From NCBI GenBank assembly GCA_039585915.1, contig JBDGUZ010000001.1:1-53144 (forward strand): a stretch of 53,144 nucleotides of DNA, read 5' to 3'. The notes beneath the pieces were generated by a model. That model had not been told where the DNA came from. It ran no database searches and was given only the letters and a program-made list of their open reading frames with translations. The position numbers and the translations under genes are program-made. The DNA comes from Gemmatimonadota bacterium. GTDB taxonomy: Bacteria; Gemmatimonadota; Gemmatimonadetes; Palauibacterales; Palauibacteraceae. Each line of letters begins with the position of its first letter. The stretch's first letter is position 1. Positions 14,449-28,713 of this stretch are shown here, piece by piece.

Positions 14449-15557
14449 CGGCCATCTCCCAGCAGGACCCGCCGGTACTGCTCGACGACGGTGTCCAACT
14501 CGTACGGCTTCCAGCTTTCGGGCCCCGGCAACGGCGTGGCGTCGTCGATGGCCGCTTCGATGGCCGCCTCGAGGGCCGCACTGTCACTCATCGGCACGAG
14601 CCGCCCGTAGGCGCCGTCATCGAGGATCTCGTTCGGGCCGCTGGGGCAGTCGGTGGACACGATGCGTGCGCCACTGGCGAGCGCCTCGATCAGCACCGTC
14701 GGCAGCCCTTCGTACAGGGAAGACATGACGTAGACCGAGCAGCGGCGCATGTACGCAAACGGGTTTTCGACGAAGCCCGGCAGCCGGACATCGGCTTCGA
14801 GACCGAGCCTCGATACCGTCGATTCGAGCTCCCGGCGCAGCGGTCCCTCTCCCAGGATCATCAACCGAACCCCCCGGCGCGCCCTGAGAGAGGCGAAGGA
14901 CTCGAGCAACGTCGGGTAGTCCTTTTGCGTGTCGAGCCGCCCGACGGCGAGAATCACCGGGTCGGACCCCGGTGCGAACCACTCGTCCTCGACCGACTCC
15001 ATCGATCGGGCGATCAGATCGGGGGTCACCACGGGATTGTGAATCACCTCGATGATATCGCCCGGGATACCGATCGTGCTGGCAAGGTCCGATGCGACAC
15101 CTTTCGACACAGCCACGACCGCCGCGGCGTGCGGAAACGTCCGACGGGCGAGCGGCGGGACCAGTCGCCCGCGCCGGTACGGCGCGTCCGCCGCCGCCCG
15201 GGACATGTTGTTCTGTACGTTCAGCACCAGTCTCGGTCGTGTACCCGACAGGGCCCGTGCCCAGGTTGCCACCACGTTGGCGTAATCGAGCGTGGATAGC
15301 AGAACGTCCGGATGGTTGGCTCGCAGGTAGCCCGCGAGGCTCGGAAGGCTGGTGATGATGCGGCTCGCGCCAAGGTCCACGACCCGGATGTCGTCAGGGA
15401 TGTCTTCGACGTACGCTCCTTCGGCCATCGCCAGGACGAGATCCAGCGATACGCCGGAACGGGACAGGGCGATCGCGAGCTTGAGCATGGCGCGTTCGGC
15501 GCCTCCGCCCCGCATGGAGGGGACGAAGATCGCCAGATCTTTGTTGCTCATCGTCAT
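14445..15557 (-). CDS. glycosyltransferase family 4 (GT-B)
   Basis: Start trimmed to the ATG at 15557 (MTMSNKDLAIFVPSMRGGGAERA), which forms an ATGA overlap with the flippase stop. The C-terminal EX7E-type region reads VYVMSSLYEGLPTVLIEALASGARIVSTD. Confidence 0.9.
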   Translation of the reverse strand: MTMSNKDLAIFVPSMRGGGAERAMLKLAIALSRSGVSLDLVLAMAEGAYVEDIPDDIRVVDLGASRIITSLPSLAGYLRANHPDVLLSTLDYANVVATWARALSGTRPRLVLNVQNNMSRAAADAPYRRGRLVPPLARRTFPHAAAVVAVSKGVASDLASTIGIPGDIIEVIHNPVVTPDLIARSMESVEDEWFAPGSDPVILAVGRLDTQKDYPTLLESFASLRARRGVRLMILGEGPLRRELESTVSRLGLEADVRLPGFVENPFAYMRRCSVYVMSSLYEGLPTVLIEALASGARIVSTDCPSGPNEILDDGAYGRLVPMSDSAALEAAIEAAIDDATPLPGPESWKPYELDTVVEQYRRVLLGDGR

Positions 15558-17104
15558 GCCCCTCTCCCGCCTCTGAATGTTCCCACGACACGTGACGCTC
15601 GCCGCGTGAGGTGGTGCCTCATACCCCCGCCCAGCCCCGCAAAGAAAGCAGCTGGTCCTGCCACGAATACCGTGGCAATCGTCACGCCGATCAACGGGAC
15701 CCATGCATCCACATCGAGTCGCCTGCCGAGGAACAGGGCGAGTCCGAAAAGTATGGCACTCGCGATGGCCGGTCGTACCGACTGCCTCAGTTGATCGGCG
15801 AGTCCGATCTTGAGGATCCTCCCCACCAGCCTCGGATACAGAATGCTCAGAAGGCCACGGCCCATGAGGAATCCTGCGCAGAGGCCGACGATCCCTCCGT
15901 CCAGCACGATCACGAACCCCGCGGCAAGAGCCACCGCCAGGACAGCGGCGAGCGCTCCAAGGAGGACCTTCTTCTTCAGATCGAGCGTGAGATCAATGAT
16001 ATGGGCATCATTCCGCAAGAAGACGAACTGGATGACGAGAATCACGATCAGGAGGTTCGCCAGTTCACCGGCATAGAATTCCTCTCCCACCCAGAGCCCG
16101 ACGAACGACCTGTTCCACAAGAGGATGCCGACGCCGGCGACCGTGGCCAGAACCCATGTGAAGGCCATGATCTCGGCTCTCACGCTGGCGCTCTTCGAGA
16201 TGTTGCCTGCGCCGATGAGACTCCCGAGACCGGGAGCCGCTCCGATCACGATCATCATGACCATCGTGACGAGGGCTTCCGGGACGTAGCGGGTCAGAGT
16301 ATAGACGCTCACGAGTTCGGGAGAGTCGGCGATGCCGAGAACCACGATATCACCAGACCTCAGGACCTGTCCCACCAGCCGCCAGCCCAGAAACCACCAG
16401 CTGAGCCCCAGAAACCACCGGGTCTCGCTCCCGGTCGGTCGGTTGAGACCGAACCACGGGACGAAGCTCTTGACGATGAAGAAGTACGTCGCCCCGGTGA
16501 GAATCGTGGTCACGAGCATCGCCGCCGCGACACCGGGGAGTCCCGTTTCGGTCTTCACGGCGAGAATCATCAATCCGCCGCCCACGATCACCAGAAGAGC
16601 GGAGAAGCCCATTCGCCTGTAGCCGAGGTTCTCGCCATCAAGAACCGAACGCGGAACGCCTACGAAGTTGAGCACGACGAGATTCGTCACCAGGAGAACG
16701 GTGGCCAGGCGGATAGGCCACACCATGTCTGGAGGAGAGTCGAGCCAGCCGGGAACGAACCAGGCGGTGACGAATCCGATCGGAACGAGAATCGGAAGGA
16801 AGATCAACGCTACGACCAGCGAGCTTCCGACCTGCCGCCGCTTTTCCTCGAGATCCGGCGATGACTGACGGTTGGCAATCGACCACTTCAGCGCCTGCGA
16901 TGGCCTCCCACCAGCTGCAGACATGTATCCCATGAGACGCCCGAGCACCTGCCATACGCCATATGCAAAATCGCCCAGTCCGGCGACGAGAATCGGGTTG
17001 ACGAAGAAGGCGACGCCCAGGCGAGTGATGAATTCGATACCCGCGGCAATCGAATTCAGTGAGGCGCGCTTCGTCAGTTGGCTGTCGGTGGCCTGATTAC
17101 CCAC
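15554..17104 (-). CDS. wzx: oligosaccharide/polysaccharide flippase (Wzx, MOP superfamily)
   Basis: 516 aa with about 12-14 TM helices and an N-terminus typical of PST-family flippases (SLNSIAAGIEFITRLGVAFFVNPILVAGLG). It sits inside a polysaccharide locus. Confidence 0.85.
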   Translation of the reverse strand: MGNQATDSQLTKRASLNSIAAGIEFITRLGVAFFVNPILVAGLGDFAYGVWQVLGRLMGYMSAAGGRPSQALKWSIANRQSSPDLEEKRRQVGSSLVVALIFLPILVPIGFVTAWFVPGWLDSPPDMVWPIRLATVLLVTNLVVLNFVGVPRSVLDGENLGYRRMGFSALLVIVGGGLMILAVKTETGLPGVAAAMLVTTILTGATYFFIVKSFVPWFGLNRPTGSETRWFLGLSWWFLGWRLVGQVLRSGDIVVLGIADSPELVSVYTLTRYVPEALVTMVMMIVIGAAPGLGSLIGAGNISKSASVRAEIMAFTWVLATVAGVGILLWNRSFVGLWVGEEFYAGELANLLIVILVIQFVFLRNDAHIIDLTLDLKKKVLLGALAAVLAVALAAGFVIVLDGGIVGLCAGFLMGRGLLSILYPRLVGRILKIGLADQLRQSVRPAIASAILFGLALFLGRRLDVDAWVPLIGVTIATVFVAGPAAFFAGLGGGMRHHLTRRASRVVGTFRGGRGA

Positions 17105-17771
17105 CGCGTGTCTCGATCAACTCGATCAATGATTCGGCGATCTCGTCAGGACTCATACTCGACGTGTCGAACCGAACCAGGTCTGTGGGGCGGAGTTGCC
17201 TGATGATTGACAGTGACGACTCGAACGCGGTGCGATAACGGCCGAGCCAGGCCAGCGCCTCGTCGTCGTTCAACGCCTCGCAAGGATGTCCGCGATTCCG
17301 GTTTCGGATCCGAGCCAGGAGGATGGAGTCCTGAGCATCGAGCCAGATGACGAGCGTCATCGTCCCGGACCAGGCGTCGCGCATCGATTCCCACCATCTG
17401 CGAAACCTGACTGTGTCCGGAGGGCCGAATGCCTGGAGTTTCGCCAGGCGAAAGAATGGACCGTGGTCGTACAGTACGGGGGGCGATTCACCATCGGATC
17501 GGTGCGTCAGCTTCCCGAGCCAGGACTCCAGGTAGACCATCGACTGCAGTATCTCCCGCGGAAATCGGCCGTGTCTGACCTCTCTCCACAGGAAGGAGGC
17601 CGGCAGTACGGGAAGAAGCCGGAGGGCTACGGGAATGCAGGAACGATCGCACGACTCAGCACCAGGACGGATGGACGTCCGACCGGCGAGTGCATCGATG
17701 AGCGTAGTCTTACCTGCGCCCGCAGGGCCGGCGACCTCGATCACTCCGCCGGCATGCCGAAAGCTTTCCAT
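17097..17771 (-). CDS. orphan P-loop NTPase, nucleotide/nucleoside-kinase-like
   Basis: Walker A motif VAGPAGAGKTTL, a hydrophobic strand plus Asp (LVIWLDAQD), and an Arg-rich lid-like segment (RIRNRNRGH). The size (224 aa) fits a kinase fold. It overlaps the wzx start by 8 nt. I recognise no specific family. Confidence 0.7.
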   Translation of the reverse strand: MESFRHAGGVIEVAGPAGAGKTTLIDALAGRTSIRPGAESCDRSCIPVALRLLPVLPASFLWREVRHGRFPREILQSMVYLESWLGKLTHRSDGESPPVLYDHGPFFRLAKLQAFGPPDTVRFRRWWESMRDAWSGTMTLVIWLDAQDSILLARIRNRNRGHPCEALNDDEALAWLGRYRTAFESSLSIIRQLRPTDLVRFDTSSMSPDEIAESLIELIETRGG

Positions 17772-17886: not shown

Positions 17887-20289
17887 TCAGGCATCCACGT
17901 ATTCGGCTGTAGCGGCGTACAGGTAGGGGTTCCTGCTCCGGCCGTACTTCCGCCTCTTCCCGTCGGGGTCGTTGAAGATCGCTCCGAGCACACGGACCTT
18001 GGCCAGGGTCAACTGAGCGTACGCTCTCTGTGCTTCTTCGCGGTCCGTCTGGCCAGCGCGGATCACGATCACCGCCCCATCGACCAACTGTCCGAGAATC
18101 GCCGTGTCCGCAGCCGCGAGCACGGGGGGCGTGTCGAGAATCACCATGTCGTAACGGTTGTTCAGATCTGCAAGTAGCCGCCGGATCGGTGCGCCCTCGA
18201 AGAGTTCCAACGGATCCGACGGAGGCGTGCCACACGAGATCGCCGACAGGTTCATCAGCGATGTCTTCTTGACCACCTTCGGAACACGCAGGAAATACGA
18301 ACTCCGCGGGTCGAGCAGGTCGGCGAGTCCCGGGGCCCGCGGCAGGTCGAGGACCTTGTGCATGCGCGGACGACGCACGTCACAGTCGACGAGCACGATG
18401 CTCATTCCCTTGTGTGCGACCGAGATCGCCAGGTTGACCGCGGTGAGCGTCTTTCCCTCTCCCGGTCCGACGCTGGTGACGGCGACACTCTCGAGACTCT
18501 CGTCTCCCACGGAAGACAGGACGCTCGTACGCAGCACACGGAACGCTTCGCGAGACACCATGTCGGTCGTTCCGAGCTTCTCGATATACACCGGCGCGTC
18601 CTCCTTCACCGGGTCCGATCGCGACGGGAGCCGAGGCAGGAGGCCGGCGACTTTCCGGGAGCCGTGCAATGCGAGTTCTGGTGTACGAGGAATAATGGCC
18701 AGCTGAGGCAAATGGAGGACCTCTCCGAGCTCTTCGGGCCTGCGGATCGAGGTGTTCCTCGCCTCGCGGATAAAGGCGAGCGTGACGCCGACGCCGAGGC
18801 CAAGGAACAGTCCGATCACGATCTTGATCGGCCACAGGCCGAAGGCGGGCTTGTACGGGAGCGCGGCCATGTCCACGATATCGACATCGCCGATCTGCAC
18901 GTTCTCCGCGATCTGCGCCTGCTGGTACTCCAGGCGGAGCTCGTCCGCCATCTCGGTCGTGACTTGCACCTGTCGGCTAAGGCGTGTTTCCTCTGCCTCT
19001 TTCCCCGGCAGCGCCTGTACGGATGAGGCCGTGCGGCTGCGAAGCGACTCGAGCGCCGCGATCCGCGCATCCGCCGAGGCCACGTAACTCATCAGAGCTG
19101 CTGCGATCCGGTCTTCTGTTGACCGGATCAGGTTCTTCAGTTGCGCGACATCCGGGTTCGTCGGCGCGACGCGGAACGGACCCGTCGTGAGCGAGTCGTA
19201 CCGGGTCTGATATACCATGATCTGCTCGTAATTGCCGATGATCGCCGGTTGCGCCGCCAGCTGCGGCAGCGCCGCGACGGCCCTTACCGCCGCGGCTCGG
19301 CTGGCCTCGTCGTCGGTGCTGAGATTCGCCGCCAGCCCGGCGACGAGCCGGCGGTCGGCCCGCAGCTCGTGCAGGCGTGTCTCGAGTGACAGCAACTCGG
19401 TCTGTTCGGCTGAGATCCGCTCAGCAGTGCCGGCCAGGTTCTGCGAACTTCGGAAGTTGGTCAGACTCGACTGGGACGCCCGGAGGACGCTTTCCGTCTG
19501 GCTGAGTTGCTCCCCGAGGAATTCTCGACGAACTCGTGACTGCTCCCGCGCGGCTTCCACGCCCTGTGCCCGGAAAGTGACGATGAGTGCGTTCGCCACC
19601 GACTGCGCAACATACGGATTCGGGCTCAAGTAACTCACGTCGACGACATCCGTACCTTCGCGCCGTACTACCTGGAGATTCGCGAGGACGCGATCGATAG
19701 CCAGTTCCCGGGGAAGGACCGCTACTATGAGCTCCGTGATCTCGGGGCGCTCGGCGAGGCTGAACTCGATTCCTTCGTAACGGACAGTATCTCCATAGGC
19801 CACCCGAGTGGTCCCCTGCTGTCCACTTACGACAAGTCCCCCCGGGTCGAACACGACGGTAATCGTGTCCGGCCCTGTTTCTTCGGAGACTCTCATTCCG
19901 GACACTTCGGACGTGAGCGGATCGCCTCCGACCGCTACGAGCCTGAGGCCGAGAGAGTCGACAACGCTGCCGATGAGCGTCCGGCTACGCAGGACCTCGA
20001 GCCTGGACAGCAGCGGATCGGTCGCCCGGCTGAGACCGATCTCCGGGACCTCTCTGTCACCTATCAGGATTGGACGGACATCGCTCAATCTGATCACGGC
20101 CTGTGCCTGGTAAACGCGCGACTCCGTGAAAGCGAGGAGTCCTGCAGCTACCAGGAACAGAGTCACGACAACGGCGATCAGACGCCTGTGGTTGTCCAGG
20201 ACATTCAGCACCTCTCGAATCGTGATCGACTCGGTGGGTGGTACGGGTGAATCGTTGAAGAACTCCGGCATCTGCTGGTTTTGCCTCAC
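17887..20289 (-). CDS. wzc: polysaccharide co-polymerase / tyrosine autokinase (Wzc/GumC-type, PCP-2a)
   Basis: N-terminal Wzz-type TM plus a long coiled-coil periplasmic region, then a second TM (LWPIKIVIGLFLGLGVGV). The C-terminal CpsD-like ATPase carries Walker A VTSVGPGEGKT, A' VLVDCDVRRP and B MVILDTPP. The tail is Tyr-containing (KYGRSRNPYLYAATAEYVDA). The start could be Met7 (20271). Confidence 0.9.
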   Translation of the reverse strand: MRQNQQMPEFFNDSPVPPTESITIREVLNVLDNHRRLIAVVVTLFLVAAGLLAFTESRVYQAQAVIRLSDVRPILIGDREVPEIGLSRATDPLLSRLEVLRSRTLIGSVVDSLGLRLVAVGGDPLTSEVSGMRVSEETGPDTITVVFDPGGLVVSGQQGTTRVAYGDTVRYEGIEFSLAERPEITELIVAVLPRELAIDRVLANLQVVRREGTDVVDVSYLSPNPYVAQSVANALIVTFRAQGVEAAREQSRVRREFLGEQLSQTESVLRASQSSLTNFRSSQNLAGTAERISAEQTELLSLETRLHELRADRRLVAGLAANLSTDDEASRAAAVRAVAALPQLAAQPAIIGNYEQIMVYQTRYDSLTTGPFRVAPTNPDVAQLKNLIRSTEDRIAAALMSYVASADARIAALESLRSRTASSVQALPGKEAEETRLSRQVQVTTEMADELRLEYQQAQIAENVQIGDVDIVDMAALPYKPAFGLWPIKIVIGLFLGLGVGVTLAFIREARNTSIRRPEELGEVLHLPQLAIIPRTPELALHGSRKVAGLLPRLPSRSDPVKEDAPVYIEKLGTTDMVSREAFRVLRTSVLSSVGDESLESVAVTSVGPGEGKTLTAVNLAISVAHKGMSIVLVDCDVRRPRMHKVLDLPRAPGLADLLDPRSSYFLRVPKVVKKTSLMNLSAISCGTPPSDPLELFEGAPIRRLLADLNNRYDMVILDTPPVLAAADTAILGQLVDGAVIVIRAGQTDREEAQRAYAQLTLAKVRVLGAIFNDPDGKRRKYGRSRNPYLYAATAEYVDA

Positions 20290-20305: not shown

Positions 20306-20959
20306 CTAGTCTCTCGTGAATCGTTCGACTACCAGCAGCACCGCTGCGGCGGCCCCGACCAACGCGATAAACAGGCCCGTGGTCCACGTCTTCGTCGGAA
20401 CCACGATCTGGTCGCCGGACCGGATGGTCTCACGGAATGCGAGGTTCGACGGATCGGTGAGATTCAGCTTCTGACTGACGATCCCTCGACCCGGTTCCTC
20501 CCGCAGCAGCACTACGGCGTCCGTCTTCGCGTTCAGCCCCGGCCCGCCGGCCCTCGCTACGGCCTGTACAAGTGTCGTCGCAGGGTGCATTGCGTAGGTC
20601 CCGGGGAGAATTACGGTTCCCACCACAACGACTTGAAACAGGGGCTCGACTACCAGGTTCGGTTCATCAATAAACTCACGTAGCACATCGGTGATCGCCG
20701 CGTCCAGGCCCGACAGGGGAATATCGGTTGCGTGGACATCCTGATACAGCGGGTGCGCGATCGCCCCATCGGTCCCGATCCCGAACACGCCGCTGTACTG
20801 CTCATATCGCCAGACCGCGATCCGGATCGAGTCTCCGGGGGCGAGGGTCACCGGACTGGTATCCGGAGATATGTTGATCGGGGCTGGTGACGAACTGCAC
20901 GCTCCGGATACGATGACGAAACATGCCAGGAGCACGTCCACGGTTCGACGGACTGTCAT
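20306..20959 (-). CDS. wza: polysaccharide export outer-membrane lipoprotein (Wza-like; Poly_export + SLBB)
   Basis: Trimmed to the ATG at 20959 (MTVRRTVDVLLACFVIVSGACSS, lipobox), with GAGGAG 6 nt upstream. PGDSIRIAVW...G..GAIAHPLYQDV matches the Poly_export motif, and there is an SLBB-like GTVILPGTY. The 153 upstream codons of ORF 20306..21418 are not protein-like. Confidence 0.85.
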   Translation of the reverse strand: MTVRRTVDVLLACFVIVSGACSSSPAPINISPDTSPVTLAPGDSIRIAVWRYEQYSGVFGIGTDGAIAHPLYQDVHATDIPLSGLDAAITDVLREFIDEPNLVVEPLFQVVVVGTVILPGTYAMHPATTLVQAVARAGGPGLNAKTDAVVLLREEPGRGIVSQKLNLTDPSNLAFRETIRSGDQIVVPTKTWTTGLFIALVGAAAAVLLVVERFTRD

Positions 20960-21274
20960 CGACCACTCCTCACTGTTCACCATGTCGGGGCATCTGACCG
21001 CCAGACCTCGGGTGTTGCCTCGGACCTGACAAAGATACGGTGAATTCGTACCGGTATAGAGACTCACCAATGTGAGGCATCGACTCGGTACGCGCGACTG
21101 TGGATCGCCCGCAACACCATGCCTCCTCTGACACGACGGGCGCGCGATCATTATTGCGGCGAAAACGAAGCGCTCGTACTCATTCGCTTGCCACCAGGGT
21201 AGTGTGCTGAAGCGGGAGGTGGAATTGGCGCTAGCAGCTGCAGAAAACAGACCGAGCGCGGGGCAACCGTCGGT

Positions 21275-21904
21275 ATGAAGCGGGCGTTCGACGTATTCGT
21301 GGCCGCGACCGCGCTGGTGCTGCTGTCGCCGGTGATGGCGATCGTCGCCCTCCTGATCCGGGTGTTCCTCGGCAAACCGGTGCTGTTCCGGCAGACGCGA
21401 CCGGGGCTGTACGGCCAACCGTTCGAGATCATCAAGTTCAGGTCCATGTTCGACGAACTCGACGCCAATGGAAACGAGATTCCCGAGGCCGATCGCGTCG
21501 GGCGTTTCGGGCAGTTCATCCGGACGACCAGCCTCGATGAGCTACCCGAGCTGTGGAACGTTCTCAACGGAACGATGAGCCTGGTCGGGCCCCGACCCCT
21601 TCTGATGAGATACCTCGATCGTTATTCCTCCGAACAGGCCCGGCGCCATGACGTTGCGCCGGGGATCACCGGCCTGGCCCAGATCGGTGGACGGAACGCC
21701 ATTTCCTGGGACGAAAAGTTCGCTCTCGACGTGTACTACGTCGATCACCATACGTTCTGGATGGACCTCCAGATCCTCTTAAGAACGGCCGGGAAGGTGC
21801 TCCAACGGGAGGGCATCGCCGCCGCAGGGAGTCCGAGCTCGCCTGAGTTCATGGGCCCGACACCGAACCACCGGTCCGATGGACTCGGAGAAGCGGGCAA
21901 ATGA
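21275..21904 (+). CDS. small monotopic phosphoglycosyl transferase (PglC/WbaP C-terminal type 'sugar transferase')
   Basis: MKRAFDVFVAATALVLLSPVMAIVALLIRV...PVLFRQTRPG..G.PFEIIKFRSM, SLDELPELWNVLNGTMSLVGPRP. These are the canonical bacterial sugar transferase motifs. Confidence 0.92.
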   Translation: MKRAFDVFVAATALVLLSPVMAIVALLIRVFLGKPVLFRQTRPGLYGQPFEIIKFRSMFDELDANGNEIPEADRVGRFGQFIRTTSLDELPELWNVLNGTMSLVGPRPLLMRYLDRYSSEQARRHDVAPGITGLAQIGGRNAISWDEKFALDVYYVDHHTFWMDLQILLRTAGKVLQREGIAAAGSPSSPEFMGPTPNHRSDGLGEAGK

Positions 21905-22848
21905 GCAGCGACACTCCCGCCACTGTGCAGCAATCGACCCTGAGGAAGGTGTACGGCTTCGTTTCTCACCAGCCCCGGTTTCGCAAGGCCGTGATGACGA
22001 CGCCAGGGCTCCGTCAGCTGGCCTGGCGTTTCGTGGCCGGCGAAGACCTCGAAACCGGTGTGGCAGCGGTCCGTTCGCTGAACGCCCGCGGGATCCTGGC
22101 CAGTCTCAACTTCGTTGGCACCCACGTGCACGAGCGGGAGGAGGCACTGTCAGCTACCGACGCCGCCATCGAAGCGCTCCAGCGCATACACGGCGAAGAC
22201 CTGGCGGCCAACCTGTCGGTCAAGCCCACCCAGCTCGGCCTCGACATCGGCGAGGGATTCTGCCGACTTCAACTCCGTCGGGTGGTCGAGCGGGCACGCA
22301 GTCTAGGACTTTTCGTCCGGATCGATATGGAGGAATTCGTCTACGTCGAGCCGACGCTGCGCCTGTTCGAGGAGCTGCGCACCGAGTTCGGGCCGGACAC
22401 GGTCGGAATCGTGATCCAGTCGTACCTGCGCGACCGCGCCGGCGACCTCGAGCGGGTGGTCGCCGTCGGCTCCAGCGTCCGGCTGACGAAAGGTGGGTAC
22501 TGGGAGCCGGAGGTGGCCTTCCGGGACAAGGCCGACATCGATCGATGCTTCGACCGTGACATCGAGTTCCTGCTGTCCCGCGGACGGCTGCCCGCGATCG
22601 CCACCCACGACGAGAACTTCGTGAATCGCACCATGGAGCTCGCCACGCAGCTCGGGCTCGACCGGTCCGATTTCGAGTTCCAGATGCTGTATGGGGTCAG
22701 ACCGGACCTGCAGGAGCGACTGGCCAGCGAGGGCCACGAGGTCCGCTGTTACGTCCCGTACGGCGGGCAGTGGTTTCCTTACTTCATGGGCTGTGTGCGC
22801 CGGCTTCCCGGTGGGGCCATGAGACGACTGCGGGGGCGAAGCCGATGA
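21901..22848 (+). CDS. monofunctional proline dehydrogenase family protein
   Basis: Appears collinear with Thermus-type ProDH as I remember it (RFVAGEDLE, SVKPTQLGLD, FVRIDMEE, GIVIQSYL, VRLTKGGYWEPE, IATHDEN, EFQMLYGVRPDLQ, VRCYVPYG.QWFPYF). ATGA overlaps are present at both ends. Confidence 0.88.
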   Translation: MSSDTPATVQQSTLRKVYGFVSHQPRFRKAVMTTPGLRQLAWRFVAGEDLETGVAAVRSLNARGILASLNFVGTHVHEREEALSATDAAIEALQRIHGEDLAANLSVKPTQLGLDIGEGFCRLQLRRVVERARSLGLFVRIDMEEFVYVEPTLRLFEELRTEFGPDTVGIVIQSYLRDRAGDLERVVAVGSSVRLTKGGYWEPEVAFRDKADIDRCFDRDIEFLLSRGRLPAIATHDENFVNRTMELATQLGLDRSDFEFQMLYGVRPDLQERLASEGHEVRCYVPYGGQWFPYFMGCVRRLPGGAMRRLRGRSR

Positions 22849-23948
22849 TTGACGCGTACACGCTGACGACCGGTGACGAGGAGAGATGGCGGAAGATCCT
22901 GCCGGCCGACTTCAGGGCCGGTGCCAGCCTGGAGTACGTACGGATCGCTGAGCGGCAGACCGGATTGTCGGCGCGGCTATTCGTGGTAACGGACGACGGA
23001 AAGCCGCTCGTAGCCTATCCCTACTTCCTCCGGCCCCTCGACACCCTGCCGTTCACGGCGAGCGCCGATTCGACCCGGTACGACACCAGTACGCCCGAGT
23101 ACCTTGGGCCCGTCTGGCTCGACAGCGACCTGACCCCGGAGGGGGCCCCTTTCCGGTTTCCCGACGTGTTCTCCAGCTATTGCCAGGAGCACGGTATCAT
23201 CGCCGAGTTCGCTCACCTCGACCCCTGGATTCCGGATGAGCTACTGAAGCCGGGGTGCGTCAAACCCAACCGGGAGATCGTCTACGTCGACCTGACGTGG
23301 CCCGAGGACGAAATCTGGATGAAATCCCTGTCCTCCGATGCCCGCCGGCAGACCAAGCAGGGCCTCCGGGCCGGCGTGCACACCCGCCGGGCGACCAGCC
23401 CGGACGACGTGCGGGAATTCTATCGCCTGTACGCGATGACGATGGAGCGCCTCCAGGCCAGGGAGGGCTACTGGTACCCACTCGAGTATTTCATGGCGTT
23501 CTTCGAGACGATGTCCGACAATTCGTTCTTCGTCCTCGCCGAATACGAAAGGCAGGTGGTGGCGGGAGGACTGTTCCTCCACGATGACCGTGAGATCCGC
23601 TGGCACCTTTCAGCGGCCGATCGGGAGTGGAGCCGTGTGCGACCGGTCAACGTCTACCTCTACAAAACCATCCGTGAGTCACTCGGACAGAAATGGACCC
23701 GGATGATCCTCGGAGGGGCGTATGAGGATGGTGATGGCGTCTTCCGGTTCAAGGCGAACTTCTCCAGGCTGCGCGCAGACTTCAACACCTACGAACGTGT
23801 GCACGACACCGAGGCCTGCGCCGAGATCATGACGCGCTGGCATCGATTCCACGACGGAGCGTCCCCCCCTGACGATTACTTCCCCGCCTACCGCTCGTCG
23901 CCCGGAGCGAGTGACGATCAGGCAGCGGTTGAAGCCGACACGGCCTGA
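22845..23948 (+). CDS. FemAB-like / BioF2-like GNAT-fold acyl(aminoacyl)transferase
   Basis: Start moved to the ATG at 22845 (ATGA overlap with the ProDH stop). About 367 aa, with the FemAB/Acetyltransf_6 pattern (SSDARRQTKQGLRAGV, FYRLYAMTMERL, VLAEYERQVVAGGLFL, FRFKANF). Confidence 0.75.
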   Translation: MIDAYTLTTGDEERWRKILPADFRAGASLEYVRIAERQTGLSARLFVVTDDGKPLVAYPYFLRPLDTLPFTASADSTRYDTSTPEYLGPVWLDSDLTPEGAPFRFPDVFSSYCQEHGIIAEFAHLDPWIPDELLKPGCVKPNREIVYVDLTWPEDEIWMKSLSSDARRQTKQGLRAGVHTRRATSPDDVREFYRLYAMTMERLQAREGYWYPLEYFMAFFETMSDNSFFVLAEYERQVVAGGLFLHDDREIRWHLSAADREWSRVRPVNVYLYKTIRESLGQKWTRMILGGAYEDGDGVFRFKANFSRLRADFNTYERVHDTEACAEIMTRWHRFHDGASPPDDYFPAYRSSPGASDDQAAVEADTA

Positions 23949-24254: not shown

Positions 24255-25424
24255 ATGTCATCTCGCCCGTTACGCCTGGTTTGCATCTCGACAGTGCCGA
24301 TAACGCAGTATTATCGGCTCGATGGGCAAAGCGCGTATCTCACGTCTCACGGTATCGAAGTACACGTCATCGCTTCACCGGGCACATATCTGGACCGAAT
24401 TGCGGAGCGTGACCAGGTACCCGTCCATCCCGTCGAGATCAGCCGCCCTGTGGCTCCTGTCTCGGATCTCAAGACCCTTCTGAAGCTGGTCCGAACGCTT
24501 CGGACCATTCAGCCGGATATCGTGAATGTGAGCACTCCCAAGGCGGCACTCCTGGGAGCGATCGCCGCGCGGATTGCTCGTGTTCCGCATACCGTTTTCC
24601 TGGTTCGGGGACTGGTGACGGAAACGGCCTCGGGTCCAATGCGCAGGCTGTATCGGGCCGCCGAACGCCTCACGGCAAGGTTGTCGGATACCGTGATCTG
24701 CGTATCTCCCTCACTGCTGGAGTTTGCTCGCCGTGAGTCGATCGTCGATCGCGATCAGGGGCTGGTGATCGCGTCGGGGATGTCGAACGGAGTCGACGCT
24801 GACCGGTTCAGGAAAGCGTACGACGTAGGGCGACAGGAGGCGCCGGTAGTCGGTTTCGTGGGTCGTCTCGCAGCCGACAAGGGGATCGAGGATCTGGCGG
24901 GCGCCTGGCCTGCCATCCGGAACTCTCATCCGGATGCTCGCCTGTTACTGGTCGGGAACTGGGAGGATACCGGTTCCGTGTCCAGCCAGACGAGAGAGAG
25001 TATCGAGAACGACCCCTCGGTGAAGGTCACCGGCTTCGTCGAAGATGTCGTTCAGTTCTACGAGCAGATGTCGGTATTCGTATTCCCGACTCACGGAAGC
25101 GAAGGCTTTCCAAATGCGCCCATGGAAGCGGCGGCGAGCAGCCTGCCCGTGGTTGCGACTGAGACGGTTGGCTGCGTTGACGCCGTTGTCGAAGGAAGCA
25201 CTGGTACGCTGGTGCCCCGCGGCTCACCCGACCGCCTCGCAGAGGCCGTCATCGGCTACCTGAACGATCCGGATCTGAGGCTGGAACAGGGGCGGGCAGG
25301 ACGCATGCGAGTTGAGACTGAATTCCGGCAGGAGTTGATCTGGGAAGGGATAGCCGATGTCTATCAGGGGATCGGCAGGTCCGTATCGGGGAGATTCGAC
25401 CAAACGCGAGGCGTGACGGCGTGA
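24255..25424 (+). CDS. glycosyltransferase family 4 (GT-B)
   Basis: VGFVGRLAADKGIEDL and VFVFPTHGSEGFPNAPMEAAASSLPVVATETVG (EX7E region). The stop overlaps the next gene's start (GTGA). Confidence 0.9.
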   Translation: MSSRPLRLVCISTVPITQYYRLDGQSAYLTSHGIEVHVIASPGTYLDRIAERDQVPVHPVEISRPVAPVSDLKTLLKLVRTLRTIQPDIVNVSTPKAALLGAIAARIARVPHTVFLVRGLVTETASGPMRRLYRAAERLTARLSDTVICVSPSLLEFARRESIVDRDQGLVIASGMSNGVDADRFRKAYDVGRQEAPVVGFVGRLAADKGIEDLAGAWPAIRNSHPDARLLLVGNWEDTGSVSSQTRESIENDPSVKVTGFVEDVVQFYEQMSVFVFPTHGSEGFPNAPMEAAASSLPVVATETVGCVDAVVEGSTGTLVPRGSPDRLAEAVIGYLNDPDLRLEQGRAGRMRVETEFRQELIWEGIADVYQGIGRSVSGRFDQTRGVTA

Positions 25425-26575
25425 ATCGACCCGAACGCGCCCGACTCTACCTTTCCCCGCCACACCTGGGTGACTCCGAGCGTGCCTTCGTTGCGGAGGC
25501 CTTTGATTCGAACTGGATCGCTCCGCTCGGGCCCAACGTGGACGCATTCGAGGCGGAATTCGGGCAGTACACAGGTGCGTCCAACGCCGTGGCCCTGAGC
25601 TCGGGCACGGCCGGGCTTCATCTTGCCCTGCTTCTGGCAGGCGTCGAGCGGGGCGATGCCGTTCTCGGGAGTGACCTGACGTTCGCGGCGAGCGCGAATG
25701 CGGTCGTCTATGCAGGCGCCGAGCCAGTGTTCGTGGACAGCGAGCGGGAATCCTGGAACCTGGATCCGGAGTTGCTGGCGGATGACCTGCGCCGCCGGGC
25801 ATCAGCCGGGCGACTTCCGGCTGCGGTGGTTGTCGTCCACGTCTTCGGTCAAGCCGCCAGCCTCGGTCCGATTCTGGAAGCGTGCGCCGAATACGAAGTC
25901 CCGGTCATCGAGGATGCCGCGGAGGCGCTCGGCTCGACGTATCAGGGCAAGGCCGTGGGCACTTTCGGTCTGCTCGGCGTCTACTCGTTCAACGGGAACA
26001 AGATCATCACCACGTCGGGCGGTGGGATGCTCGTCGCGGCCGACGACGAAGTGGCGCGACGAGCCAGAAAGCTGGCGACGCAGTCGCGAGAGCCGGCCCC
26101 GCACTACGAGCATGTTGAGATCGGTTTCAACTATCGCCTGAGCAACGTTCTCGCCGGAATAGGCCGCGGGCAACTCCAGGTCCTGGAGGACCGTATTGCC
26201 GCCCGACGAAGGAACTTCGAGTACTACGCGAGGCACCTGGGGGGTCTTCCAGGAATTCAATTCATGCCGGAGGCACCGTGGGGACGACACACGCGGTGGC
26301 TCAGCACGCTTACCATCGATCCGGATGAGTTCGGCGCAGACCGCGAACAACTCAGACTGGCGATGGAACAACAGAACATAGAGGCCCGGCCAGTATGGAA
26401 GCCGATGCACATGCAGCCGGTGTTCAAGGGATGCGATTTCCTGGGCGGCAGGGTGTCTGAGGACTTATTCGCGCGGGGCCTGTGTCTGCCATCGGGCTCC
26501 AACATGACAGAGGAGGATCTCGAGAGAGTGGTCTCAGCAGTTCACTCGCTGTGTCCTGCTACCGCGACCGGGTGA
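25421..26575 (+). CDS. DegT/DnrJ/EryC1/StrS-family sugar aminotransferase (PglE/WecE-like)
   Basis: YLSPPHLGDSERAFVAEAFDSNWIAPLGP, SGTAGLHLALL, SFNGNKIITTSGGGMLV (PLP lysine), FNYRLSNVLAGIGRGQL. Confidence 0.92.
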   Translation: MNRPERARLYLSPPHLGDSERAFVAEAFDSNWIAPLGPNVDAFEAEFGQYTGASNAVALSSGTAGLHLALLLAGVERGDAVLGSDLTFAASANAVVYAGAEPVFVDSERESWNLDPELLADDLRRRASAGRLPAAVVVVHVFGQAASLGPILEACAEYEVPVIEDAAEALGSTYQGKAVGTFGLLGVYSFNGNKIITTSGGGMLVAADDEVARRARKLATQSREPAPHYEHVEIGFNYRLSNVLAGIGRGQLQVLEDRIAARRRNFEYYARHLGGLPGIQFMPEAPWGRHTRWLSTLTIDPDEFGADREQLRLAMEQQNIEARPVWKPMHMQPVFKGCDFLGGRVSEDLFARGLCLPSGSNMTEEDLERVVSAVHSLCPATATG

Positions 26576-26706: not shown

Positions 26707-28713
26707 ATGCACAACGACGGGGCCGGAACGAAACCGGGGTCGGACCCGAGTGCCAGTCCAGGTGATCTCGCTCGCTTACACCCACTTCGAGGGATCGCGC
26801 AGAAGTTAGTCAACAGCCTGCGTCGGCGACGCAGGGCGATAGCGCTTGTTTCGACCATCGTCGTTACGATCGCTACGTACGCGTCCAGCTACGCCATCCG
26901 CTTCGATATGCAGTGGCCAACGGCGTACACGAGTACTTTCCTGGCCACCCTGTTCTGGCTCGTTGCGGCCCGGATTTTCACATCGAGCCTGTTCAAGCTG
27001 AACGTGCATCGCTGGCGCTACAGCGGAATCCGAGACATCATCGACATGGTGGCGGCCACCACGCTGTCGACTCTCCTGTTCTATCTGATCGTACAGCGTC
27101 TTCCTTTGCAGCCCATCGTGCCCCGCTCAGTGATTCTGCTCGAGTTCATCCTTGCCTCGTATACCCTCGGGGCGCTGCGGATGACGTACCGATTCGTCGG
27201 CGAGTGGAGCCAGCGGCGGCTGGTGACAAGACGCCAGGTGGGGCCCTGCCAGCGGACGATGATCGTCGGGGCTGGAGAAGCCGGAATCCTGGTCAGCCAG
27301 CACCTCGTTCACCATCCGGAGCTCGGATGCGAGGTCATCGGATTCGTAGACGACGATCCCGGCAGGGCGAAGACCCGGATGGGGGGCATCCCGGTTCTCG
27401 GGAGCCTGGTGGACTTACCCAGGCTGGTCAAATCGCATGTGATCGACGAACTCGTGGTGGCCATGCCATCCGCTCCACCAGAAGCCATCCGTCGAGTGGT
27501 CTACATCTGCAAAGATTTGGATGTCGGACTCAAGATCCTCCCTGCGGAGCGCAGTGTGCTGCGGGGTCCGGAGTCGCTCGTTCGGATTCGCGACGTCCAG
27601 ATCGAGGACCTGCTGGCTCGAGATCCGATCGAGCTCGAGCTGCCACAGCTGTCGGCCGACATCGAGGGCAAGTCGGTTCTGATCACGGGTGCGGCGGGCT
27701 CGATAGGATCGGAGCTGGCCCGCCAGGTGGCGCTGCACAAACCGAAGAGGCTCATTCTATTCGACCAGGCCGAGACCGACCTGTTTTATGTGGACATGGA
27801 GCTGAGGGAGAAACACCCTGATGTCAGGATCATTCCCGCGGTCGGCGACATCCTGAACAAGGCGCGAGTAGCGGACATTTTCGCGAAATGGAAGCCGTCC
27901 CGAGTCTATCACGCCGCCGCCTACAAGCACGTACCGATGATGGAGGCAAATCCCTCCGAGGCGGTTCGGAACAACGTGGTTGGCACCTGGAATGTGGCCA
28001 CGGCCGCAGGCAGAGGAGGGGCGAAGAAATTCGTGCTCATTTCGACCGATAAGGCAGTGAACCCGACCAATGTGATGGGTACGACGAAGCGAGCTGCGGA
28101 GCTCGCTATCCTGTCATGCGCCGATCTCTACACGAAAACGGCGTTCACAGCGGTTCGATTCGGCAACGTCCTGGGAAGCCAGGGAAGCGTGATCCCGATC
28201 TTCAAGCGCCAGGTGGCGGAGGGCAGGGACCTCACGGTCACCCACCCCGAGGTCACACGCTACTTCATGACGATTCCCGAGGCGGTGCAACTCGTGCTTC
28301 AGGCATCGCTTCTGCCAGAGGCCCGAAGCCATATCGCGATGCTGGATATGGGACAACCCGTGAGTGTTCTCGAAATGGCCCGCAACTTCCTCAGATTACG
28401 CGGTGAGACCAGCCCCGACGAGCACATCGAGTTCATCGGACTTCGGCCGGGAGAGAAACTGCACGAGGTCCTGACGGGAGAGAACGAGGAAACGCGACAG
28501 ACGACCCATCCGAAGGTTCGGGTCGTCGTACGAGCGCAGGAGAACTGGAGGCTGGAGCTGTACGCGAGATTGCATACAGCCCCTCTGGGAGCGGTGATCG
28601 GCAATAACTTCGATCACCTGGAGCAGATGTGGGAGATCCCCGGTGAGCCAGCGACTGCTGCAGTCAAGAAGAAGTATTCGGCAAAGGTCGAGCCCACCGA
28701 GAAGACGGCGTAA
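26707..28713 (+). CDS. membrane-anchored NDP-sugar 4,6-dehydratase/epimerase (CapD/PglF/WbpM-like)
   Basis: Four N-terminal TM helices. There are two Rossmann segments (MIVGAGEAG; VLITGAAGSIGSEL), then YHAAAYKHVP, LISTDKAVNPTNVMGTTKR and VRFGNVLGSQGSVIP. Confidence 0.92.
   Translation: MHNDGAGTKPGSDPSASPGDLARLHPLRGIAQKLVNSLRRRRRAIALVSTIVVTIATYASSYAIRFDMQWPTAYTSTFLATLFWLVAARIFTSSLFKLNVHRWRYSGIRDIIDMVAATTLSTLLFYLIVQRLPLQPIVPRSVILLEFILASYTLGALRMTYRFVGEWSQRRLVTRRQVGPCQRTMIVGAGEAGILVSQHLVHHPELGCEVIGFVDDDPGRAKTRMGGIPVLGSLVDLPRLVKSHVIDELVVAMPSAPPEAIRRVVYICKDLDVGLKILPAERSVLRGPESLVRIRDVQIEDLLARDPIELELPQLSADIEGKSVLITGAAGSIGSELARQVALHKPKRLILFDQAETDLFYVDMELREKHPDVRIIPAVGDILNKARVADIFAKWKPSRVYHAAAYKHVPMMEANPSEAVRNNVVGTWNVATAAGRGGAKKFVLISTDKAVNPTNVMGTTKRAAELAILSCADLYTKTAFTAVRFGNVLGSQGSVIPIFKRQVAEGRDLTVTHPEVTRYFMTIPEAVQLVLQASLLPEARSHIAMLDMGQPVSVLEMARNFLRLRGETSPDEHIEFIGLRPGEKLHEVLTGENEETRQTTHPKVRVVVRAQENWRLELYARLHTAPLGAVIGNNFDHLEQMWEIPGEPATAAVKKKYSAKVEPTEKTA

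Follow-up and report, generated by a model that had tools for sequence, protein, structure and literature searches.

The prolyl-S-PCP dehydrogenases PltE, RedW and CloN3 oxidise carboxyl-tethered proline in pyrrole biosynthesis, and since the proline carboxyl is held in the tether, these pathways need no carboxylate clamp. In structural terms, they possess the acyl-CoA dehydrogenase fold and not the barrel of the proline dehydrogenases (ProDHs). CarD is a ProDH paralogue of carbapenem biosynthesis that is thought to use free proline, and in the PutA proteins the redox state of the flavin is coupled to membrane binding and regulation. The pyrrole-pathway enzymes and CarD share with the ProDH-like protein considered here the proposed logic of a flavoenzyme oxidising proline for biosynthesis but, unlike it, are without a known link to glycan assembly or Fem-type enzymes.

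The closest described relatives of this protein are the monofunctional ProDHs of Thermus thermophilus (Tt; 2G37/2EKG) and Deinococcus radiodurans (4H6Q), which combine a (β/α)8 barrel with an N-terminal helical arm. Here, the clamp on the carboxylate of proline is a pair of arginines, Tt R288 and R289, equivalent to Ec R555/R556 (PMC10651016, PMC6017737), the first of which also forms the active-site gate with E65 (PMC6017737). The closest known Fem-type transferases with a double-GNAT fold belong to peptidoglycan and antibiotic pathways, namely FemX_Wv, in which K305 is the catalytic lysine (PMC12945691), and Orf11/Sba18/Sbb17 of the streptothricin-type antibiotics. The third relevant system is the Campylobacter Pgl bacillosamine pathway (PglF, PglE, PglD, PglC), in which PglD is a hexapeptide-type N-acetyltransferase and the phosphoglycosyl transferase (PGT), PglC, displays in Campylobacter concisus an aromatic box (Y118, Y122, W150, F154, F197) along with a C-terminal extension (PMC10186338).

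Three overlapping genes in a polysaccharide locus

The window, i.e., the whole 53,144-nucleotide stretch of Gemmatimonadota DNA that was analyzed, contains three forward-strand ORFs, which the preliminary description had reported to be linked by stop/start overlaps. Direct reading of the sequence confirms both the coordinates and the two ATGA overlaps. ORF1 (21275..21904) codes for a PglC-type small monotopic PGT of 209 aa and overlaps at 21901-21904 with ORF2 (21901..22848), which codes for a ProDH-fold flavoenzyme of 315 aa; this in turn overlaps at 22845-22848 with ORF3 (22845..23948), which codes for a Fem-type double-GNAT transferase of 367 aa. Alignment of ORF3 with its homologs supports the ATG at 22845 as the start over an upstream GTG at 22770.

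The earlier assignment of ORF1 as a PglC-type PGT is borne out by a 213-bit match to PF02397 (Bac_transf) and by an end-to-end phmmer alignment with C. concisus PglC (8e37) at 207.7 bits (E = 1.3e-60), as against 131 bits with WbaP, the former score being used as a stand-in for the published diNAcBac-cluster HMM (score of at least 200). The Asp-Glu dyad and the PRP motif are kept, with L87-D88-E and P106-R107-P108 aligning with PglC, and the diNAcBac-type aromatic box is complete at 5/5 positions (Y113, Y117, W145, F149, F192). ORF1 differs from the Campylobacter enzyme in having GNEIP where PglC has GLLLP, i.e., with the G and P kept and I for L (motif as defined in PMC10186338), and in that the E117-K196 salt bridge of PglC appears to be charge-swapped to R112/E191.

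Downstream on the same strand lie genes for a GT4 glycosyltransferase (24255..25424; Glyco_trans_1_4 117.7 bits, Glycos_transf_1 104 bits), a PglE/LegC-like sugar 4-aminotransferase whose GTG start overlaps the GT4 stop (25421..26575; PF01041 328 bits, TIGR04181 LegC family 381 bits against a cutoff of 420, PseC 236 bits) and a PglF/CapD/WbpM-type membrane-anchored UDP-HexNAc 4,6-dehydratase (26707..28713; Polysacc_synt_2 354 bits, CoA_binding_3 60 bits, PseB 178 bits). The window hence holds PglF-like, PglE-like and PglC-like steps of a 4-amino-sugar pathway in common with Campylobacter. However, no PglD/hexapeptide homolog was found on searching the six-frame translation of the whole 53 kb by phmmer with two PglD/hexapeptide queries, and the window has the Fem-like and ProDH-like pair in place of PglD.

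On the other side of ORF1, the gene coordinates delimit a divergent intergenic region of 315 bp (20960..21274), presumed, from the divergent layout only, to be a promoter region. It is followed on the reverse strand by genes for a Wza-like polysaccharide export lipoprotein (20306..20959; Poly_export and SLBB domains, with the ATG at 20959 leading into a lipoprotein-like signal), a Wzc-like chain-length determinant/tyrosine autokinase (17887..20289; GNVR, Wzz and ParA/AAA_31 domains, TIGR01007 135.6 bits, above cutoff), a P-loop NTPase/kinase-like protein (17097..17771; weak RapZ-like_N, AAA_18 and AAA_33 matches), a 516-aa protein with zero Pfam matches (15554..17104), a second GT4 glycosyltransferase (14445..15704; Glyco_trans_1_4 111.8 bits) and a Wzy_C-family polymerase/ligase (13264..14448; PF04932 58.9 bits). 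In a close relative, locus L053, the same P-loop gene is found upstream of the PGT, and a 516-aa gene without a Pfam match occupies the corresponding position. The neighbors of ORF2 are polysaccharide genes, and in line with the earlier claim that this ProDH is without a P5C dehydrogenase partner, there are zero Aldedh matches among the window ORFs scanned. Nor was a second ProDH found in a search confined to the 53-kb window.

The ProDH-like clade and its genomic associations

ORF2 is recovered by the Pro_dh profile (PF01619; 121.4 bits, cutoff 27), is 36-42% identical to the monofunctional ProDHs, sharing their barrel and N-terminal helical arm, and its AF2 model (pLDDT 83.5) has ProDHs as its top Foldseek matches (DrProDH, 4H6R, and TtProDH, 2G37; TM 0.87-0.91). 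Its previous labeling as a full-length Thermus-type ProDH nevertheless has to be corrected as regards function: the score against NCBIfam NF045947 (ProDh_Thermus) is 226.2 bits, under the equivalog cutoff of 500, and both the proline-binding arginine pair and the gate are replaced. In phylogenetic placement, which the preliminary description had proposed as a check, ORF2 falls in a monophyletic clade apart from the housekeeping ProDHs, to which only ~13 of the 150 highest-ranking clusters (50% identity) belong.

The positions involved in FAD binding and catalysis (Tt K99, D133, Q163, R184, K187, Y190, H227, Q252, L254, Y275 and Y285, corresponding to K108, D142, Q173, R194, K197, Y200, H236, Q261, L263, Y284 and Y294 of the window protein) are at least 90% conserved in both clades. 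When 124 clade members are compared with 117 canonical ProDHs, the only fixed substitutions are E65 to T74, A189 to G199, R288 to G297, R289 to C298 and E292, in helix 8, to R301; single-residue insertions at G164 and D220 also separate the two clades. Thus, the clamp positions, which are arginine in 100% of canonical ProDHs, are occupied in the clade by G297 (100%) and C298 (98%), and with T74 and G297 in place of E65 and R288, the gate is likewise not kept. The helix-8 motif of the clade is Y-x-L-G-C-x-R-R, with its LGC being present in 105 of the 107 readable top homologs. The newly invariant residues include H75, G199, W201, C298, R300 and R301, of which the last two lie one helical turn past the lost arginine pair, R301 taking the place of the glutamate that pairs with R289. 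With clamp and gate missing, the active site would be better suited to a carboxyl-tethered (amide-linked) substrate than to proline in free form; a carboxyl engaged in an amide bond would make the clamp dispensable. It is also possible that R300 and R301 constitute a relocated carboxylate/phosphate site, and the substrate would thus be free and anionic.

Gene-neighborhood comparison of 31 independent clade loci with 10 canonical ProDH loci shows that the clade is associated with glycan assembly and not with put/P5CDH genes. A Fem-like gene is detected by HMM at a distance of at most 2 kb in 25/31 clade loci but in 0/10 canonical loci (p = 7e-6), and this count rises to 28/31 with the inclusion of Acetyltransf_6+GNAT neighbors. 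A PGT is present within 10 kb, or fused, in 20/31 as against 0/10. The adjacency of the ProDH-like and Fem-like genes, which is met with again in many phyla, is far beyond chance. Of 14 unique ortholog loci, 7 also show the ATGA overlap between the two genes. In the reverse direction, starting from two Fem orthologs (P0213, P0180), the ProDH-like gene is found directly upstream. The cassette extends across at least 7 phyla, including Verrucomicrobiota, Planctomycetota, Myxococcota, Desulfuromonadota, Chloroflexota, Acidobacteriota and one MAG labeled Bacteroidota; Anaeromyxobacter oryzisoli SG63 is one of its carriers. Outright ProDH-PGT fusions are seen (P0100, P0106, P0115, P0241, P0242, L017, L023, L024, L028), with the Chloroflexia having a ProDH-like protein fused to a PGT, and translational coupling to the PGT is observed both in the window and in L053.

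These results uphold the co-occurrence of ProDH, PGT and Fem-like genes in other genomes that had been suggested as a check on the preliminary description, to the point of fusion, while narrowing its view of the triad as a unit. Conservation centers on the ProDH-like and Fem-like genes as a pair, with the PGT as a frequent but non-obligatory neighbor; moreover, the partner PGTs fall into two subtypes, of which only some are PglC/diNAcBac-like. Three loci (L003, L012, L052) have the pair without adjacent sugar-nucleotide genes, and variants in the Holophagae differ in possessing one more GNAT domain and in having a carbamoyltransferase as neighbor. A Fem ortholog of Geothrix oryzisoli that has no companion ProDH is placed beside PglF-like, PGT and DegT genes, i.e., in the PglD slot. 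In locus L001, the aminotransferase encoded just upstream of the pair carries a fused PglD_N/hexapeptide domain; the 4-amino group may be acetylated there, and the acceptor of the Fem-like enzyme may differ. No tRNA or aminoacyl-tRNA synthetase genes linked to the cassette were found.

The Fem-like transferase

The identification of ORF3 as a FemAB-like GNAT-fold transferase stands, with matches to PF02388 (FemAB; 47.9 bits, gathering score 24) and PF13480 (38.9 bits, gathering score 22). Its best PDB match by sequence is FemX_Wv (E = 2.6e-6), and Foldseek searches with its AF2 model (pLDDT 90.8) retrieve, in order, FemX, Sba18/Sbb17 and FemA (E 1e-14 to 1e-15), and then MprF, the Sba18/Sbb17 matches being structures bound to the amino sugar streptothrisamine. 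Although ORF3 is only 16-18% identical to FemX_Wv, Orf11, Sba18 and Sbb17, it shares their Phe-Lys motif in addition to the double-GNAT fold: FemX F304-K305 aligns with F302-K303 of ORF3 ('YVFKHVF' versus 'FRFKANF'), and both residues are invariant across the family in alignments of 30 and of 60 members. Each of the best matches, by sequence or by fold, is a transferase that depends on aminoacyl-tRNA, and some of them aminoacylate an amino sugar; ORF3 is probably aminoacyl-tRNA dependent as well. The position aligned with FemX_Wv R211, which we take to bind the phosphate of UDP-MurNAc, is apparently not an arginine in ORF3, as counted by hand in a low-identity alignment. The polysaccharide-locus context argues against a role in peptidoglycan; unlike FemX_Wv and Orf11/Sba18/Sbb17, ORF3 is paired with a flavoenzyme in Wzx/Wzy polysaccharide loci.

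Proposed function and competing explanations

The best explanation for these observations is that ORF2 and ORF3 form a conserved two-enzyme cassette unrelated to proline catabolism; the most likely product of the remodeled ProDH is a surface-polysaccharide decoration of a chemical kind not yet described. With considerable confidence, the cassette can be regarded as dedicated to glycan tailoring and its ProDH as re-specialised. In the scheme that we favor, the PglF-like dehydratase and PglE-like aminotransferase would yield a UDP-4-amino-4,6-dideoxy-HexNAc, whose free amino group would, with no PglD present, be N-acylated by the Fem-type enzyme, an aminoacyl-tRNA supplying the amino acid; Pro-tRNA, and with it L-proline, is the most plausible choice. 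The ProDH-like flavoenzyme would then oxidise the tethered pyrrolidine ring (N-C5), passing the electrons to the membrane quinone, to give a 1-pyrroline-5-carboxamide, the equivalent of a glutamyl-semialdehyde amide, which could stay as such or, on further oxidation, become an acyl group of the 5-oxoprolyl, glutamyl or pyrrole type. Transfer of the sugar phosphate so modified to undecaprenyl phosphate would finally fall to the PglC-type PGT. We infer, in particular, the donor (aminoacyl-tRNA), the amino acid (proline), the acceptor (a 4-amino sugar), the sequence of events and the group that is formed in the end. Taken whole, with N-acylation, most plausibly by proline, and ring oxidation as the means by which the cassette would tailor a sugar in a surface polysaccharide of the Wzx/Wzy type, the proposal has somewhat better than even chances; the prolyl amide taken by itself is less likely than not. 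The central idea of the preliminary description, namely, that a proline-derived acyl group is installed on the primer amino sugar, thus gains from the PglF/PglE/PglC steps without PglD, the cross-phylum linkage and the separate clade, but has to give up a ProDH that is Thermus-type in function and a core wider than the pair.

Among the alternatives, the one that reverses the order of events is unlikely but the least so: the ProDH-like enzyme would act before transfer, its substrate being either Pro-tRNA or an imino acid in free form, such as pipecolate, an analogue of proline or an N-alkyl amino acid, with the Fem-like enzyme installing the oxidised product on the glycan. From the invariant R300/R301, H75 and K108, a new anion site might arise that accommodates a larger carboxylate or an ester/phosphate; the pair is self-contained and at times apart from sugar-nucleotide genes; and CarD provides a precedent for a ProDH paralogue feeding biosynthesis. 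However, imines of the P5C type are unstable when free and are not known to be charged onto tRNA or used by Fem enzymes, the PGT fusions indicate action on the substrate or product of the PGT, and a small free amino acid is hard to square with the loss of both clamp arginines and the gate. Marginally less probable is that the pair, only loosely tied to the PGT, leaves the primer sugar alone and modifies something else, e.g., a different amino sugar within the repeat unit, the polymer once finished, a protein or a lipid-linked intermediate from a separate pathway. The pair-only loci, the PglD-like domain that L001 has of its own, the varying PGT subtypes and the Holophagae variants are in keeping with such a target, as against the ProDH-PGT fusions, the translational coupling to the PGT, the lack of PglD in the window and the Fem ortholog of Geothrix oryzisoli in the PglD slot.

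The remaining two explanations deny the ProDH-like protein a catalytic role in glycan tailoring. It might be a non-catalytic or regulatory pseudoenzyme that controls the PGT, e.g., as a membrane tether or by sensing proline or the flavin/redox state, which would agree with the loss of the canonical substrate clamp, the fusions to the PGT and the redox-dependent membrane binding and regulation of PutA. We consider this improbable: all of the FAD-binding and catalytic residues are strictly retained across phyla, the new invariant pocket residues (C298, H75, G199, R300, R301) resemble re-specialisation and not decay, and the obligatory partner is the Fem-like enzyme and not the PGT. That ORF2 is an ordinary proline-catabolic ProDH lodged in the operon by chance would be consonant with its PF01619 match and ProDH fold and with its being the only ProDH in the window. 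Yet, the replacement of R288, R289, E65 and E292, the score below the equivalog cutoff, the clade-specific linkage to Fem-like and PGT genes, the PGT fusions and the absence of a P5CDH among the window ORFs scanned leave this reading with hardly any probability and effectively refute it.

Returning to the favored tailoring scheme, we found no literature on a ProDH-like/Fem-like glycan cassette. It is conceivable, albeit speculative, that the cassette represents a widespread route in which aminoacyl-tRNA-dependent, Fem-type prolylation at the 4-amino group of a bacillosamine-type nucleotide or lipid-linked sugar is followed by ring oxidation at the membrane by a re-specialised, sometimes PGT-fused, ProDH. 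If the scheme is true, the reducing-end sugar of the exopolysaccharide would bear a cyclic-imine/aldehyde, 5-oxoprolyl or pyrrole-type acyl group, and the cassette would supply both the first ProDH-fold enzyme with a substrate other than free proline and the first tRNA-dependent step of surface-polysaccharide assembly.

Organization and genomic setting of the cassette

Inspection of the sequence bears out both the positions and the stop/start overlaps that the preliminary description had given for the three genes. ORF1 (21275-21904, plus strand; 209 aa) and ORF2 (21901-22848, plus strand; 315 aa) match the Pfam/NCBIfam models Bac_transf (213 bits) and Pro_dh (121 bits), respectively, and ORF3 (22845-23948, plus strand; 367 aa counted from its ATG) matches FemAB (47.9 bits) and Acetyltransf_6 (38.9 bits). 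ATGA overlaps are present at 21901-21904 and 22845-22848; the GTG at 22770 was ruled out as the start of ORF3, its homologs starting at the ATG at 22845. A Wzx/Wzy-type polysaccharide locus surrounds the three genes, which stand first in its plus-strand arm; this arm continues downstream with a GT4 glycosyltransferase (24255-25424), a PglE/LegC-like aminotransferase (25421-26575) and a membrane-anchored PglF/CapD-like 4,6-dehydratase (26707-28713), all on the plus strand. The stop of the GT4 gene overlaps the GTG start of the aminotransferase gene as GTGA at 25421-25424, and hence translational coupling reaches past ORF1-ORF3. The divergent, minus-strand arm upstream of ORF1 contains a Wza-like exporter (20306-20959), a Wzc-like kinase (17887-20289), a 516-aa protein lacking a Pfam match (15554-17104), another GT4 and a Wzy_C protein (13264-14448), in that order. 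The gene for the 516-aa protein overlaps a P-loop/kinase-like gene (17097-17771, minus strand), whose product has weak matches to RapZ_N, AAA_18 and AAA_33, and in L053, the locus of a close relative, this pair is kept at 6981-9274, directly upstream of the phosphoglycosyl transferase (PGT) gene. No aldehyde/P5C dehydrogenase was found among the window ORFs scanned, and neither a second proline dehydrogenase (ProDH) nor a PglD-type hexapeptide acetyltransferase anywhere in the 53-kb window.

Elsewhere in the window, an unusual 779-aa fusion of a pyruvate-kinase barrel with PUA_2 and ATP-sulfurylase domains (36710-39049, minus strand) adjoins a Sulfotransfer_3 family gene (35735-36697, plus strand), and the two could serve together in sulfate activation and sulfation, perhaps of the same or another surface polymer. 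A complete RND efflux set, comprising an OEP outer-membrane factor, an HlyD_D23 adaptor and an AcrB-family pump (5753-11560), lies upstream of the polysaccharide locus; it is ordinary and probably unrelated to it.

The ProDH fold and its substrate site in ORF2

ProDH is regarded as a single-purpose catabolic enzyme. The AF2 model of ORF2 (pLDDT 83.5) finds its best Foldseek matches in the Deinococcus radiodurans and Thermus thermophilus ProDHs (TM 0.87-0.91), and ORF2 shares the fold and the cofactor site of the ProDH superfamily. Alignment to these two enzymes gives helix 8 of ORF2 as P-Y-F-M-G-C-V-R-R-L-P-G-G, as opposed to the canonical P-Y-L-T-R-R-I-A-E-R-P-E-N. A comparison of 124 members of the clade carrying this Y-x-L-G-C-x-R-R motif (hereinafter the G-C clade) with 117 canonical monofunctional ProDHs revealed that the only fixed but different positions, from T. 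thermophilus (Tt) to ORF2 numbering, are E65 to T74, A189 to G199, R288 to G297, R289 to C298 and E292 to R301, together with two one-residue insertions. Within the clade G297, C298, R300 and R301 are invariant, as are the clade-specific H75, W201 and W42 of the same comparison. All shared FAD-binding and catalytic positions are kept (Tt K99, D133, Q163, R184, K187, Y190, H227, Q252, L254, Y275 and Y285). In canonical enzymes Tt R288/R289, equivalent to E. coli PutA R555/R556, bind the carboxylate of proline (PMC10651016, PMC6017737), and the R288-E65 pair forms the conserved Arg-Glu active-site gate (PMC6017737). The new invariant residues, as judged from the alignment, appear to line the pocket that the canonical clamp occupied. 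As the flavin residues are kept and the device for recognizing free proline is lost in a coordinated way, the pattern reads as a signature of an altered substrate rather than of decay. ORF2 differs from L-proline dehydrogenase in its Arg pair, gate, catabolic context and score against the NCBIfam Thermus-type equivalog (226 bits, under the cutoff of 500); it fails the substrate-defining features of that family and hence is not to be filed as an L-proline dehydrogenase.

Among the readable sequences of the top 120 homologs, the L-G-C-x-R-R motif is present in 105 of 107, and the remaining 2 of 107 carry L-G-S. An exhaustive search over 1.84 billion cluster representatives, from which the best 150 clusters at 50% identity were viewed, recovered only about 13 clusters of the G-C type, mostly top-scoring with two standing lower down, and two of these are PGT fusions; the others among the best 150 carry the canonical Y-x-M-R-R-L-A-E-R-P-A-N. 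In a neighbour-joining tree the G-C clade is monophyletic, with 125 tips and zero canonical sequences within it. No model in Pfam or NCBIfam separates it from canonical ProDH, and its members are publicly named 'proline dehydrogenase (family protein)', with their partners named 'GNAT/FemAB/serine-alanine adding enzyme'. Additionally, two Chloroflexia ProDH-like proteins (L032, 9989-10954; L046, 9815-10921) contain neither G-C-x-R-R nor the canonical R-R in helix 8, reading W-L-M-L-T-I-H-G and W-L-L-L-A-A-H instead. Their genes still adjoin Fem-like, PGT and DegT genes, and they may represent a further diverged or degenerate branch.

Linkage to Fem-like and PGT genes across phyla

A one-genome-per-species scan yielded 41 loci, each spanning 20 kb, to which more were added by exact protein look-up; the pooled set comprises 31 independent loci of the G-C type and 10 canonical ones, with linkage counted from a six-frame HMM search. 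A Fem-like gene detected by HMM lies within 2 kb in 25/31 G-C-type loci as against 0/10 canonical ones (p 7e-6), rising to 28/31 against 0/10 (p 2.6e-7) on inclusion of the Holophagae Acetyltransf_6+GNAT neighbours. A PGT is found within 10 kb, or fused, in 20/31 against 0/10 (p 5e-4). The carriers belong to Verrucomicrobiota, Planctomycetota, Myxococcota (Anaeromyxobacter oryzisoli SG63), Desulfuromonadota, Chloroflexota and Acidobacteriota (Geothrix rubra Red803, Holophaga), with one further carrier being a MAG labelled Pedobacter. In the Chloroflexia loci L017, L023, L024 and L028 the ProDH-like domain stands N-terminal to the PGT in one protein, as it does in the proteins P0100, P0106, P0115, P0241 and P0242. 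The genes in the window run in a different order from these domains, indicating that the ProDH/PGT link arose more than once.

Of the 14 unique loci whose Fem gene is orthologous, 7 show an ATGA overlap between the ProDH-like stop and the Fem-like start, and L053 (82% identity) keeps the PGT-ProDH-Fem triad amid rearranged surrounding genes. In the reverse test, two of three Fem orthologs picked regardless of ProDH have a ProDH-like gene directly upstream; the third, from Geothrix oryzisoli, has no ProDH-like gene, adjoins PglF-like, PGT and DegT genes and occupies the usual place of PglD. The triad as a whole is rejected as the invariant unit; its ProDH-like and Fem-like part stands as that unit, and the PGT is a frequent member that varies in position and subtype. 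Neither the window nor any of 35 loci shows a tRNA gene travelling with the cassette, nor is an aminoacyl-tRNA synthetase gene linked, and hence no dedicated tRNA indicates which amino acid is used.

Several loci depart from the layout in the window. In L003 (4882-13879) and L052 (4387-18001) the pair stands apart from sugar genes, beside biofilm-regulation genes, with neighbours encoding a VpsR-like sigma-54 activator, PilZ, an EF-hand protein, a BcsQ/ParA-like ATPase, GGDEF/EAL proteins and a polysaccharide deacetylase. In the Holophagae/Geothrix loci L018 (8162-12565), L019, L026 and L027 a NodU/CmcH-type carbamoyltransferase precedes the G-C-type ProDH. This is followed in L018 and L019 by a 538-593-aa protein combining Acetyltransf_6 (Fem-like) with a classical GNAT domain; in L026 such a protein is encoded in the opposite orientation, a few genes upstream of the ProDH, and L027 has the carbamoyltransferase only. 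The variant cassette hints at a further N-modification. The Pedobacter-labelled contig (L015, 7900-13500) places an L-G-S ProDH-like gene beside HAD hydrolase and flagellin/FlgK genes, has neither a Fem-like nor a PGT gene at the locus, and could be mis-binned or reflect a tie to flagellin glycosylation.

Partner enzymes, proposed chemistry and implications

Among solved structures, the best sequence match of ORF3 is Weissella FemX (E 2.6e-6), with F302-K303, both invariant in the ORF3 family, aligning with F304-K305. K305 is the sole recognised catalytic residue of FemX, and the equivalent Phe-Lys of DhpH-C is essential (PMC12945691). The top Foldseek matches of the AF2 model (pLDDT 90.8) are FemX, Sba18/Sbb17, FemA, S. 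aureus FemX and then MprF domains, all aminoacyl-tRNA-dependent transferases; of these, Sba18/Sbb17, described as 'aminoacyl-tRNA-dependent peptide synthases', were crystallised with streptothrisamine, an amino sugar. On sequence and modelled fold, ORF3 has the testable features of Fem-type transferases and is predicted to use aminoacyl-tRNA.

ORF1 aligns end-to-end with Campylobacter concisus PglC at 207.7 bits, as against 131 bits with WbaP, and was compared with the fingerprints of the UDP-diNAcBac-specific small PGTs (PMC10186338). The aromatic box is complete (5/5: Y113, Y117, W145, F149, F192), a C-terminal extension is present and the GLLLP loop of PglC reads GNEIP. The E117-K196 salt bridge, which positions the C-terminus of C. 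concisus PglC, seems charge-swapped to R112/E191 in ORF1 and L053, a change that looks compensatory and supportive of the published structural model. ORF1 has most features of PglC-type PGTs. Taken with the PglF- and PglE-like genes and the lack of PglD, this suggests a 2-acetamido-4-amino-2,4,6-trideoxyhexose with N4 modified other than by simple acetylation. The partner PGTs fall into two subtypes. The PglC-like one comprises the window, L053, L009, L010 and L011. The second, which replaces GLLLP with V-W-Y-x-T and has F/L at two aromatic-box positions, is seen in Chloroflexia fusions (P0100, P0106, P0115, P0241) and Anaeromyxobacter, and accounts for most PGT partners outside the lineage of the window (L005, L013, L017, L021, L023, L025, L028, L046, L047, L054). 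It may be a class specialised for the modified sugar. Given the two subtypes, the acceptor sugar may differ by lineage.

Given the observed gene identities, folds, active-site remodelling and conserved linkage, we infer that the Fem-like enzyme would attach an amino acid from an aminoacyl-tRNA to the 4-amino group of the sugar, in its UDP-linked or undecaprenyl-diphosphate form. Proline is the most plausible amino acid, given that the obligatory partner has a ProDH fold. After transfer the proline carboxyl would be tied up in an amide, which would explain the dispensability of the clamp arginines and the gate, and the ring nitrogen would remain a free secondary amine, such that ProDH-type N-C5 oxidation would still be chemically possible. 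The immediate product would be a 1-pyrroline-5-carboxamide equilibrating with the glutamyl-semialdehyde amide; hydration and a second oxidation, in which the invariant C298 could join, would yield a 5-oxoprolyl group, with glutamyl and pyrrole-2-carbonyl groups also conceivable. R300/R301, one helical turn past the lost Arg pair, might grip the sugar diphosphate, and the PGT fusions would fit both substrate hand-over and ProDH-type electron delivery to the membrane quinone.

Rival readings concern the timing of the oxidation, the acceptor and the nature of ORF2 itself. ORF2 might oxidise on the donor side, ahead of transfer, and R301, which replaces the Glu that pairs with R289, could restore anion binding for a substrate in free form; the loss of the clamp and gate would be explained by oxidation after transfer. 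The pair might alternatively modify a different acceptor, as a PglD-like domain adjoins it in L001, which counts against the mechanism as proposed, and in some loci no sugar-nucleotide genes accompany the pair. The ProDH-like protein might also be a regulatory pseudoenzyme, a reading to be set against the retention of its flavin residues. A housekeeping ProDH is effectively excluded by motif, clade and context.

Full-text searches found no paper that connects ProDH with Fem enzymes, PGTs or the synthesis of polysaccharides, and nothing relevant on prolyl with bacillosamine or on FemAB with exopolysaccharide and aminoacyl-tRNA. A widespread, uncharacterised ProDH-like/Fem-like tailoring cassette is well supported, its chemistry being inferred. 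Since the carriers include the cultured A. oryzisoli SG63 and G. rubra Red803, the proposal is directly testable. Thousands of metagenomic 'proline dehydrogenase' and 'GNAT/FemAB' proteins at such loci are probably misnamed, and Y-x-L-G-C-x-R-R offers a simple diagnostic for annotation. A clade with kept flavin chemistry and a swapped proline clamp would broaden the substrate range of the ProDH fold and would serve ProDH enzymology and inhibitor design as a natural experiment. To our knowledge, most amino-acid-derived N-acyl substituents of amino sugars lack an assigned origin; the proposed pairing of a Fem enzyme that depends on tRNA with a flavoenzyme would, if true, account for one such route and connect the assembly of exopolysaccharide with the substrates of translation and the respiratory quinone pool.
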